A DNA stretch of 17,900 bases, from NCBI GenBank assembly GCA_038858525.1, contig JAWCFL010000020.1:15803-33702 (forward strand), in the 5' to 3' direction. This DNA comes from Candidatus Jordarchaeales archaeon. GTDB taxonomy: Archaea > Asgardarchaeota > Jordiarchaeia > Jordiarchaeales > Freyrarchaeaceae. Positions within the stretch are counted from its first letter, which is position 1. Each line of letters starts with the position of its first letter. Of the stretch, positions 6,779-8,208 are shown one piece after another. The notes under the pieces were generated by a model. It was not told the DNA's origin, ran no database searches, and worked only from the letters and a program-made list of their open reading frames with translations. Position numbers and translations under genes: made by a program.

Positions 6779-7633
6779 TCATCGCTTTTTCAGTAATTTC
6801 TCAACCTCTTCCACTATTCGAGGGACCACTTCCCCTATTCTCCCTTCTATAATGTAGTCTGATATTATCCCTGTAAGCGGTGTTGGCTCCCCATTCACCT
6901 CTATAACCTTTGCCCCATACTCGTTCAGCACTTGGGGGCGGTATCCCATAACACTCCACCTGTATCCTGTTTTCTCCTTAGCTATCCGCGGCAGGTCCGC
7001 TGCAGGGTAAACCACAGCCGAGGTTCCTATAACCAGCATGAGGTCACAGAGCAAAGCTTCCTCCTCCGCTTTGAACAGTGCGTCTCTGGGTATGGGCTCA
7101 CCGAACAAGACCGCATTAGGTTTAAGGACCCCTCCGCACGAGTCACATCGCGGGGGCAGCTCACCCTCCATGGCCTTCATGGCAGCCCTCTCTATTGAAA
7201 CTATGCTTCTACAACTTAAGCAGATAGCTTCTCTAACGTTACCGTGAAACTCCACCACGTTTCTGCTACCAGCCTTCTGGTGAAGCCCATCAATGTTCTG
7301 CGTTATTATGCAGTCAAGCTTACCCAGCTCCTCTAGCCTCGCCAACGCATAATGAGCAGGGTTAGGCTCGGCAGTAAAAAGGGAGAACCCATCCATTGCT
7401 ATGCTTATCTGAACACTCCAGAACCTCGCCGGGTCACTTATGAAGCGAGAAAAAGTGAAATCCTCAGGGTCATACTTCTTCCATAACCCATCAGGCCCCC
7501 TGAAATCGGGTATCCCGCTCTCCGTCGAAATCCCAGCACCAGTCAGGGCAACAACCTTATTCGCCTTAACGATGTCCCTAGCAGCTTGCCTAATCAACTC
7601 CTCCCTCTCTTCATCCAACAAGAAAATCACCAA
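6779..7633 (-). CDS. cobB: NAD-dependent protein deacylase, Sir2/CobB family
   Basis: GAGISTESGIPDFRG, TQNIDGLHQKAGS, catalytic HG, Zn-binding CLSC...CDSC, KPNAVLFGE, GTSAVVYPAA, EVN. Exact start uncertain (TTG 7633 or GTG 7630). Confidence 0.95.
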   Translation of the reverse strand: MVIFLLDEEREELIRQAARDIVKANKVVALTGAGISTESGIPDFRGPDGLWKKYDPEDFTFSRFISDPARFWSVQISIAMDGFSLFTAEPNPAHYALARLEELGKLDCIITQNIDGLHQKAGSRNVVEFHGNVREAICLSCRSIVSIERAAMKAMEGELPPRCDSCGGVLKPNAVLFGEPIPRDALFKAEEEALLCDLMLVIGTSAVVYPAADLPRIAKEKTGYRWSVMGYRPQVLNEYGAKVIEVNGEPTPLTGIISDYIIEGRIGEVVPRIVEEVEKLLKKR

Positions 7634-7763
7634 AAAATTGAATGAGAAAACAGCTAAAATATTTACCCCCTAACGGGGCAGCAAATCGCAACAGCAAAAC
7701 CAATGCTGCCTCAAAAGAGTTAGGAGACAGAATTCCCAATTAACCTTTTTTGAAGAATTAAGG

Positions 7764-7849
7764 AAAAAGGGGTGTGGCGGCGCTTCACCACCAGATCACC
7801 ACCCCCAAACAAGTTCTTAACGGGGGCAGGTCATTTCATACCCCTTTTT
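7764..7849 (-). promoter_or_regulatory. Candidate eukaryote-type SECIS element in the 3' UTR of the HesB-like selenoprotein gene
   Basis: Minus strand: AUGA (7834-7831), 12 nt, AA (7818-7817), 19 nt, GA (7797-7796). Helix II is CUGCCCCC/GGGGGUGG. The outer helix AAAAAGGGGU (7849-7840) pairs with ACCCCUUUUU (7773-7764). The element starts 17 nt after the stop codon. Confidence 0.72.
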
Positions 7850-7866
7850 CAGCGTCACTTCATCTT

Positions 7867-8208
7867 TTAGCAAGTTCCTCTGAGCCTCGTAGGAGTATAA
7901 TTTGTAACACGTAGCTCCTTATACCAGTACCCTGAGTAGTCCACGTGAACCTCGTCTGGGAGGTAATCATATGCGTCCTCGTGCACGTAAACCCTCAGCC
8001 CATTTACGGGGCTTTCCTCCTTGAAGCCACCCGCCTGCAAAACCTCTTTCTCGTGGTATACTCCTGCACGCACCTCAATTCTGCTACTCCTTCAAGAATA
8101 CACTCGCTCAGCCCAGACAGCTAAAACAGGATTCCCGCCTTCCCTAGTTATTCTCTCTGCCGCAGCAGTAACATAGTCTTGGGCACTTTCGGTCAACTTG
8201 AATCTCAT
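7867..8208 (-). CDS. HesB/IscA-like (CC/Se-motif type) selenoprotein, 113 aa, Sec at codon 39 (TGA 8094-8092)
   Basis: Continuous frame from ATG 8208: MRFKLTESAQDYVTAAAERITREGGNPVLAVWAERVYS-U-RSSRIEVRAGVYHEKEVLQAGGFKEESPVNGLRVYVHEDAYDYLPDEVHVDYSGYWYKELRVTNYTPTRLRGTC*. It shows HesB-fold hallmarks (LTESA, NGLRVYV..DA..YL..V.VDY, terminal GTC) and has a SECIS-like element downstream. Confidence 0.8.

Follow-up and report, generated by a model that had tools for sequence, protein, structure and literature searches.

The locus described here raises the question of how a UGA codon inside a short reading frame of an Asgard archaeon could be read as selenocysteine (Sec), and whether the RNA behind the frame supplies the signal for it. 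The window, which is the whole stretch of 17,900 nucleotides (nt) of Candidatus Jordarchaeales archaeon that was analyzed (contig JAWCFL010000020.1, positions 15,803 to 33,702), belongs to a metagenome-assembled genome of 2.09 Mb (63 contigs, 92.7% complete). It carries on its minus strand a small gene with an in-frame UGA, and a structured element was found in the 3' untranslated region (UTR) of this gene. As judged from comparative sequence analysis, this element is very likely a functional Asgard eukaryote-like Sec insertion sequence (SECIS) that directs Sec insertion at the UGA at 8094-8092. By type, it is an Asgard eSECIS-like type I element; the occurrence of eukaryote-like SECIS elements in Asgard 3' UTRs is itself already established.

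The coding sequence of the small gene (7867..8208, minus strand) begins with ATG at 8208-8206 and ends with a TAA stop at 7869-7867, and the proposed Sec codon, TGA at 8092..8094 on the minus strand, corresponds to residue 39. Upon reading through the TGA, we obtained a protein of 113 residues (MRFKLTES…VYS-U-RSSRIEV…RGTC). Gene callers split the gene at this codon, and it appears in databases as N-terminal pieces that stop at residue 38 and as C-terminal pieces of 68 amino acids; the sole full-length entry (P0006) is the same gene as in the relative G006, translated with TGA as tryptophan. Orthologues were found in Candidatus Jordarchaeia archaeon, Candidatus Jordarchaeum sp. LHC_1308, Candidatus Jordarchaeum madagascariense and Candidatus Freyarchaeota archaeon SRVP19, which bears out the Asgard origin that a preliminary description of this DNA had proposed. 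All ten same-order relatives had a TGA inside the match (four of four sampled from the window's family and six of six from the sister family), the codon stood at the same column in nine of nine aligned orthologues, and the orthologues were 40-82% identical over the whole length.

The ratio of nonsynonymous to synonymous substitution rates (dN/dS) was 0.10-0.28 upstream and 0.09-0.41 downstream of the TGA, and the codons right after it vary synonymously (AGG/AGA, AGA/AGG/CGA, ATT/ATC/ATA and GAG/GAA). Additionally, the sister family has no start codon near the TGA. A reading as two small genes separated by the UGA was ruled out on these grounds, since purifying selection on both sides, the synonymous changes and the missing start codon make it untenable. 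In this genome, TGA terminates 342 of 1139 long open frames (30%); it is thus a normal stop codon that has not been reassigned, and its decoding as Sec needs a local signal.

Such a signal is offered by the SECIS core on the minus strand, which consists of AUGA at 7834-7831, AA at 7818-7817 and GA at 7797-7796. AUGA and AA are separated by 12 nt (CCUGCCCCCGUU) and AA and GA by 19 nt (GAACUUGUUUGGGGGUGGU), and both spacers fall within the eukaryotic pattern of AUGA, 11-12 nt, AA, 18-27 nt and GA. The AUGA follows the TAA stop by 32 nt and the in-frame TGA by 257 nt; a chance in-frame TGA is present between the true stop and the SECIS. In helix II, the SECIS upper stem, the 5' strand CUGCCCCC (7822..7829, minus) pairs with the 3' strand GGGGGUGG (7799..7806, minus) over 8 bp, or 9 bp when the G.U pair 7821/7807 is counted; the 3' strand was supported by RNAalifold and by pair counts on the orthologue alignment. 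The apical loop GUUAAGAACUUGUUU (7807..7821, minus) comprises 13-15 nt, includes the AA, ends in UUU and is A-rich in all orthologues, and C7830 faces U7798 at the non-Watson-Crick position beside the tandem G.A pairs. The preliminary description had given the AUGA, AA and GA positions, both spacers, the 8-9-bp helix II and the distances from the stop and the UGA, and all of these coordinates were correct. Its extent for the element, 7796-7834, was too small: the element spans approximately 7850-7763 and, according to the folding models, is a three-way junction composed of an outer helix, a putative kink-turn arm and an accessory hairpin. Read along the minus strand, the order is GGGGU AUGAA AUGA C CUGCCCCC GUUAAGAACUUGUUU GGGGGUGG U GA UC UGGUGG UGAAGCG CCGCCA C ACCCCUUUUUC.

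The outer helix I is formed by the 5' strand GAAAAAGGGGU (7840..7850, minus), which pairs with 7773-7763 in the minimum free energy (MFE) structure with an ensemble probability of 0.89-1.0, and by the 3' strand ACCCCUUUUUC (7763..7773, minus), which was found by MFE, RNAalifold and ensemble predictions and includes a run of five U residues at 7768-7764. In the kink-turn arm, the 5' strand (7831..7837, minus) contains G7837-A7836, the bulge A-A-U at 7835-7833 and G7832-A7831 of the tandem sheared pairs, while the 3' strand (7794..7798, minus) reads U-GA-UC. G7837-A7836 could pair with U7795-C7794 as a 2-bp C-stem, leaving A-A-U as a 3-nt bulge, and we infer that this layout of bulge and tandem G.A pairs corresponds to kink-turn geometry. 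The sequence fits such a motif (G-A, AAU, G-A … G-A, U-C) and is invariant; the C-stem would be just 1-2 bp long and, being invariant, provides no covariation. The accessory hairpin, H3 (7775..7793, minus), directly follows the 3' GA-UC and has 6 bp, with UGGUGG and CCGCCA enclosing the 7-nt loop UGAAGCG; it was recovered by RNAalifold on the orthologues, and its ensemble probability was 0.75-0.98.

The 116-nt region after the stop folds at -42.4 kcal/mol, compared with -27.9 ± 3.3 kcal/mol for shuffled sequences (n = 200; z = -4.4), and none of the 200 folded as well. A loose [AG]UGA-stem-loop-stem-[GA]A descriptor matched 403 times in the 2.09-Mb genome versus 367 times in shuffled sequence, which corresponds to an approximately 1% chance of a match per 100-nt stretch. 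As the bare AUGA…GA pattern is common in shuffled sequence, the significance of the element rests on its position, conservation and covariation. At gathering scores, Rfam gave no match in the whole window, and an E-value search of 201 nt gave chance-level matches only, the best of which was the c-di-GMP-II riboswitch with 20 bits. Since this riboswitch also has a kink-turn and the alignment to RF01786 ran from end to end (20.2 bits, E = 0.045 in the 201-nt search), a ligand-sensing RNA related to it might be suspected. We regard this as hardly credible, because the score is far under the gathering score of 53.5, the whole window gave no match, the location is a 3' UTR, and the likeness is confined to the outer helix and the kink-turn arm.

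To describe the conservation of the element, we aligned the 3' UTRs of ten orthologues, drawn from the window's family and its sister family. Unguided RNAalifold found three helices, at columns 25-29/99-103 (the outer helix), 41-47/65-71 (the SECIS upper stem) and 78-82/90-94 (the second hairpin), and compensatory changes were present in nine of the 17 predicted pairs. The named structure had 92.6% of its cells paired, compared with 51-57% when the 3' partners were slid, and its covariation score was 0.467, compared with 0.15-0.21 when slid; none of 500 shuffles reached that score. In particular, helix II had 93.8% of its cells paired, with changes on both sides in five of eight pairs. The RNAalifold prediction contained the inner five pairs of the outer helix, two of them with compensatory changes, and two pairs of H3 likewise showed compensatory changes.

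The invariant positions in the ten orthologues are G7837, A7836, U7833, G7832 and A7831 on the 5' side and U7798, A7796, U7795 and C7794 on the 3' side. Position 7834 is A or, in two genomes, G, which gives AUGA or GUGA, and position 7797, a G in the window's family, is A throughout the sister family; both core variants, GUGA and AUGA_AA, have already been published (PMC11227280). Of the loop residues, A7818 never varies and A7817 is conserved to at least 90%, and the orthologue loops are 11-15 nt long with varied ends. A comparison of orthologous 3' UTRs had been proposed as a check in the preliminary description, and its expectation held: the UGA, the A in the loop and the U-(G/A)A-UC on the 3' side are retained in ten genomes of two families, and helix II covaries. 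Its further claim of Sec insertion at 8094-8092 gained support from the conserved UGA, the purifying selection on both sides of it and the covarying 3' UTR structure.

One pattern in the alignment could be taken to suggest a two-state switch, in which the CGCCGCC strand pairs with either copy of the octamer GGUGGUGA (7803-7796 and 7792-7785) and thereby turns the SECIS off. Both copies changed together from GGUGGUGA to GGCGGUGA in G001 and G003, while G002 has GGCGGUGA and GGCGGUAA; two independent G.U to G-C strengthenings explain the parallel change equally well. In the predicted ensemble, pairs between 7810-7795 and 7784-7773 all stayed at or below 1%, and blocking H3 costs approximately 11 kcal/mol. 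As the sister family also keeps both helices without having the duplication, we consider a switch very improbable and retain the reading as a SECIS.

One relative, G004, has lost the upper hairpin of the SECIS by deletion but still has the AUGA beside it, together with the second hairpin and the outer helix. The small gene of this genome (L030:1465-1790, contig C56) consists of the 3' half only, with the half containing the Sec codon missing, and carries a TGG-to-TGA nonsense change. Gene and signal have decayed together in this single case.

The same genome holds other genes with an in-frame UGA at known Sec positions, namely selD, with the UGA at the canonical position (…HG-U-ACK…), two hdrA genes (…DCAI-U-IL…) and two vhuD genes (…VG-U-xVGEC…). 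An AUGA…GA/AA hairpin was found after selD, one hdrA and both vhuD genes. These SECIS-like elements lie 18 nt after hdrA and 26 nt after vhuD on contig C1, and 6 nt after selD on contig C2; the SECIS of the second vhuD (contig C4, minus) lies approximately 47 nt before the vhuD stop and overlaps the coding end. The preliminary description had pointed to other UGA-containing genes as a comparison, and in selD, hdrA and the two vhuD genes a like element does follow the stop closely. When the SECIS arm of the ten orthologues was built into a covariance model and searched against the window's own genome, the model retrieved only the element itself (E = 1e-8), followed by C35:53-95 with E = 2; the latter proved to be another SECIS-like element, at the start of its contig. 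The model is too gene-specific to retrieve the hdrA, vhuD and selD elements.

Some further details of these loci were observed. In the second vhuD (G000 contig C4; L056), the UAA stop sits in the loop of the accessory hairpin, GGUAAGCG. The element on contig C35 (C35:1-130, L032) is a complete three-armed one, with AUGA at C35:58 and the accessory loop AGCA, and the stop of a gene (…KIAERDIELSES*) truncated by the contig start precedes it by 18 nt; a further selenoprotein gene was probably left unassembled there. At the hdrA/vhuD locus L055 (G000 C1:82000-85300), three-armed SECIS-like elements were present at C1:84244 and C1:84838, that is, between hdrA and vhuD and after vhuD, and HdrA and VhuD have two in-frame UGA codons each. 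In Lokiarchaeota, a single element after vhuD was reported to serve both hdrA and vhuD (PMC4989117).

We also surveyed vhuD loci in 71 genomes of the phylum, where three elements were recognized by eye, as mismatches or bulges defeat the descriptor. A SECIS-like element stood at the stop of every UGA-containing vhuD that was inspected and at none of the Cys-type vhuD loci; in the vhuD elements, helix II covaries in eight of eight pairs. This distribution bears on the alternative that the element in the window is a general 3'-end element (a terminator, a stability hairpin or a generic L7Ae-binding kink-turn) unrelated to UGA decoding, with the UGA being leaky or separating two genes. Archaeal RNA polymerase terminates at oligo-U. 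The U5 run at 7768-7764, which closes the element, could by analogy be an archaeal termination signal, a bacterial-style scan flags H3 and ACCCCUUUUU as terminator-like, and the bare AUGA…GA pattern is equally common in shuffled sequence. The same architecture is nevertheless found behind selD, hdrA and vhuD and behind UGA-containing vhuD of five families but not behind Cys-type vhuD, and most of the other cases have no U run after H3. Moreover, purifying selection extends from the UGA to the first possible restart, and the sister family has no start there. We therefore judge a general 3'-end function very improbable and prefer the reading as a SECIS. Separately, a second small GC hairpin at 7664-7680 on the minus strand (UGCCCCGUUAGGGGGUA, then AAUAUUUUAG), which the bacterial-style scan also described as terminator-like, stands downstream of the SECIS, ahead of the Sir2-family gene that follows (6779-7633).

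The accessory hairpin is not restricted to the small gene. An equivalent hairpin follows the SECIS elsewhere in the same genome, with the loop GUAAGCG at vhuD, UAGCG at hdrA and AGCA at selD and C35. The orthologues of H3 have the loops AGAAGCA, AAAAGCG, ACAAGCA, UGAGGCG and UAAUGCA, which together give the consensus NNARGCR with an invariant A, G and C. At vhuD, a SECIS followed by a hairpin was found in five Asgard families, with the loops GUAAGCG, AGAAUGCA, AAACGCA, UACGC, CGCGA, UGCG and GCA. In this element and three vhuD families the loop reads NNARGCR or GUAAGCG; the other loops contain GC. In the cross-family vhuD alignment, which is imperfect, six of eight hairpin pairs changed on both sides, and 72% of the hairpin cells were paired, compared with 38-51% for the whole structure when slid. 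As background, only 3.6-4.9% of random genome positions have, beginning no more than 3 nt away, a hairpin with 5 bp or more and a GCR or AGC loop, so the presence of one in four of four independently identified selenoprotein 3' UTRs is far beyond chance. The accessory hairpin recurs in this genome in no fewer than four families of selenoprotein genes, and vhuD of five Asgard families has it as well; in most cases the outer helix encloses both arms, giving a three-way junction.

Such a hairpin goes unmentioned in the main text of both Mariotti et al. 2016 (PMC4989117) and Huang et al. 2024 (PMC11227280). We tentatively propose, as an idea somewhat more doubtful than probable, that the Asgard SECIS is a three-armed k-junction-like element, not the published two-stem hairpin, and that the accessory hairpin is a second determinant of Sec insertion. 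The accessory loop could then serve archaeal SelB, or a substitute of SBP2, as a docking site. If the three-armed reading is true, the eukaryotic SECIS would have arisen by losing the accessory arm and lengthening helix I; if the hairpin is required for Sec insertion, current search models, which use the core, the upper stem and the loop, are incomplete. The compact and strongly covarying alignment of the small-gene orthologues shows the Asgard SECIS as part of a three-way junction in which the accessory hairpin is a conserved arm.

The mechanism that we envisage would begin with the mRNA of the 113-codon gene, which carries the UGA at codon 39 and whose 3' UTR is predicted to fold into the three-way junction. 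By analogy with archaeal and eukaryotic Sec decoding, the element would recruit aSelB/EFSec carrying Sec-tRNA(Sec), either directly or via a kink-turn-binding protein of the L7Ae family, and the ribosome would read the UGA at 8094-8092 as Sec rather than terminating. Archaea are not known to have an SBP2 homologue. Studies of Asgard archaea report none (PMC11227280, PMC9723677), and no search aimed at one was made here.

Several results weigh against a functional SECIS in this genome. SelB, SepSecS and tRNA-Sec were not found in this assembly, the completeness of which is given above. A PF05889 match taken as a SepSecS candidate was rejected because it is SepCysS, and TIGR00475 matches taken as SelB were rejected because they are EF-1alpha and aIF2-gamma upon reading of the sequences. 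A PSTK-like gene is present (174 bits, full-length alignment), and in eight to nine of ten relatives, the same genus included, selB adjoins SepSecS with scores above cut-off, one such selB lying at G002:C1:350598; the absence of the two genes here is therefore read as an assembly gap. With RF01852, tRNA-Sec was not found above cut-off in any of 13 related genomes, and the matches in the window's own genome were tRNA-Leu-like only, the best being a tRNA-Leu(UAA) whose D-arm region carries an insert; two anticodon-arm pattern scans for tRNA-Sec gave nothing tRNA-like. Over the whole 2.09-Mb genome, ARAGORN reported five tRNA genes by default and 12 with intron search. According to a preprint (10.64898/2026.10.13.758758), tRNA genes are heavily intron-interrupted in some Asgard archaea, among which the window's clade is not named, and by analogy such interruption could account for a missed tRNA-Sec. 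Secmarker found tRNA-Sec in Freyarchaeia (PMC11291895).

The remaining adverse points concern the protein and the element itself. A profile search of 1.84 billion representatives returned no Cys homologue, with some long multi-domain proteins matched over short stretches, so the usual argument from Sec/Cys pairing is unavailable. The eukaryotic model RF00031 (SECIS_1) gave no match in the whole window at its gathering score, nor in the 201 nt at E ≤ 10; the Lokiarchaeota elements were likewise missed by the eukaryotic model (Mariotti et al. 2016, PMC4989117). The Lokiarchaeota lokiSECIS has a fixed 9-bp stem and an 11-nt loop with a last G, usually AG (Mariotti et al. 2016), whereas the loop here has 13-15 nt and lacks the terminal A-G of that consensus, which places the element outside the lokiSECIS definition. 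This departure is confined to the loop length and the loop end only.

Within the selD gene discussed above, a separate feature was observed. An insert (L004:1753-1782; G000 contig C2:6357-6386) lies between …SDVY and AKGATEI… and ends in an in-frame UAA, and one TGA and one TAA were seen in selD of eight of the 11 genomes searched, this genome included. The insert is 30 nt long in G000 and G004, 31 nt in G002 and 34 nt in G003, and because these lengths differ it cannot simply be translated. It folds as a hairpin with compensatory changes (GCGCAGCC/GGCUGCGU, GCGUAGCC/GGCUACGC and ACACAGCC/GGCUGUGU). The likeliest reading is a mini-intron that interrupts a protein-coding gene and may belong to the archaeal bulge-helix-bulge type; the alternative is an element for translational bypass. 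A GTPase homologue of approximately 556 residues, matched weakly by TIGR00475, shows an in-frame TAA once or twice, at corresponding sites, in six relatives (G002:C1:115703-116812, G005:C297:749-1798, G007:C6:10127-11179, G008:C4:18338-19402, G009:C17:18712-19764 and G010:C263:248-1300) and may hold the same kind of insert.

To place the small protein and its element among known systems, we compared each with its closest counterparts. The protein showed a weak full-length match to Pfam Fe-S_biosyn (HesB/IscA; E = 0.12) and no match to TIGR01911, the model of the HesB-like selenoproteins, at E ≤ 1. It resembles the HesB-like selenoprotein family (NCBIfam TIGR01911; PMC13188914) in its length of approximately 110 residues and its Sec, and it has a C-terminal Cys; the motif of that family is UxGP, compared with U-R-S-S here and U-[RG]-[SG]-S in the orthologues. 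The lists for Jordarchaeia and Freyarchaeia comprise HdrA, Prx, MvhD/VhuD, SPS and VhuU (PMC9723677, PMC11291895), and the small gene is not among the seven Asgard selenoprotein families given in PMC11227280; the gene family is thus absent from these published Asgard selenoprotein lists. With the present locus, Jordarchaeia/Freyarchaeia gain a well-supported SECIS and one more selenoprotein gene, which homology surveys of known families miss.

As for the element, the euryarchaeal SECIS of Methanococcales and Methanopyrus (PMC11881835, PMC9622424) is similar in being archaeal, in lying in the 3' UTR and in acting on a UGA at a distance. No GAA_A bulge element of that type was found in the 230 nt after the stop (7640-7869, minus; loose criteria of PMC11227280), and no stable hairpin of the bacterial type was found after the UGA, where a 60-nt stretch beginning with the UGA has a folding energy of -10.2 kcal/mol (z = -1.25); the distinction from both types drawn in the preliminary description therefore stands. 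Kink-turn and k-junction motifs (Lilley laboratory) combine a 3-nt bulge, tandem G.A/A.G pairs, a C-stem and an NC-stem. The element would share with them the bulge and the tandem G.A pairs, an invariant G-C/A-U mini C-stem and a third helix at the junction, with the difference that its C-stem would be only 1-2 bp long.

The eukaryotic SECIS of type I (RF00031) is similar in the AUGA-12-AA-19-GA spacing, the tandem G.A core, the flanking pair of the U.U type and the position in the 3' UTR. In contrast, the eukaryotic element has a continuous helix I with an internal loop and a longer upper stem, where the present structure has a three-way junction and a shorter upper stem. Recognition by SBP2, a further mark of the eukaryotic type, has no known counterpart in Asgard archaea, for which no SBP2 homologue is reported.

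The closest counterparts are the Asgard elements themselves. The preliminary description had cited eukaryote-like SECIS in Lokiarchaeota; these are indeed reported, but the statement was too narrow, as such elements have been published for most Asgard classes (PMC11227280), including Jordarchaeia in 2021 (PMC9723677) and Freyarchaeia in 2024 (PMC11291895). Like the type I elements, the present one is not detected by eukaryotic, bacterial or methanogen SECIS models. The type I core, 5'-GA … [G/A]A-3' and usually within AUGA, is present here and occurs in the orthologues as AUGA or GUGA with GA or AA. The upper stem of 8-9 bp with one C.U mismatch covaries and lies within the range of 7-15 bp with at most two mismatches, the apical loop of 13-15 nt lies within the range of 8-20 nt with unpaired adenines, and the setting is the 3' UTR of a gene with an in-frame UGA in a Sec-using Asgard genome. 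Overall, the element and the Asgard eSECIS-like type I and lokiSECIS elements (PMC4989117, PMC11227280) are alike in their position in the 3' UTR near the stop, the AUGA or GUGA, the stem of approximately 9 bp, the GA or AA that follows it and the lack of a known SBP2 in their hosts.

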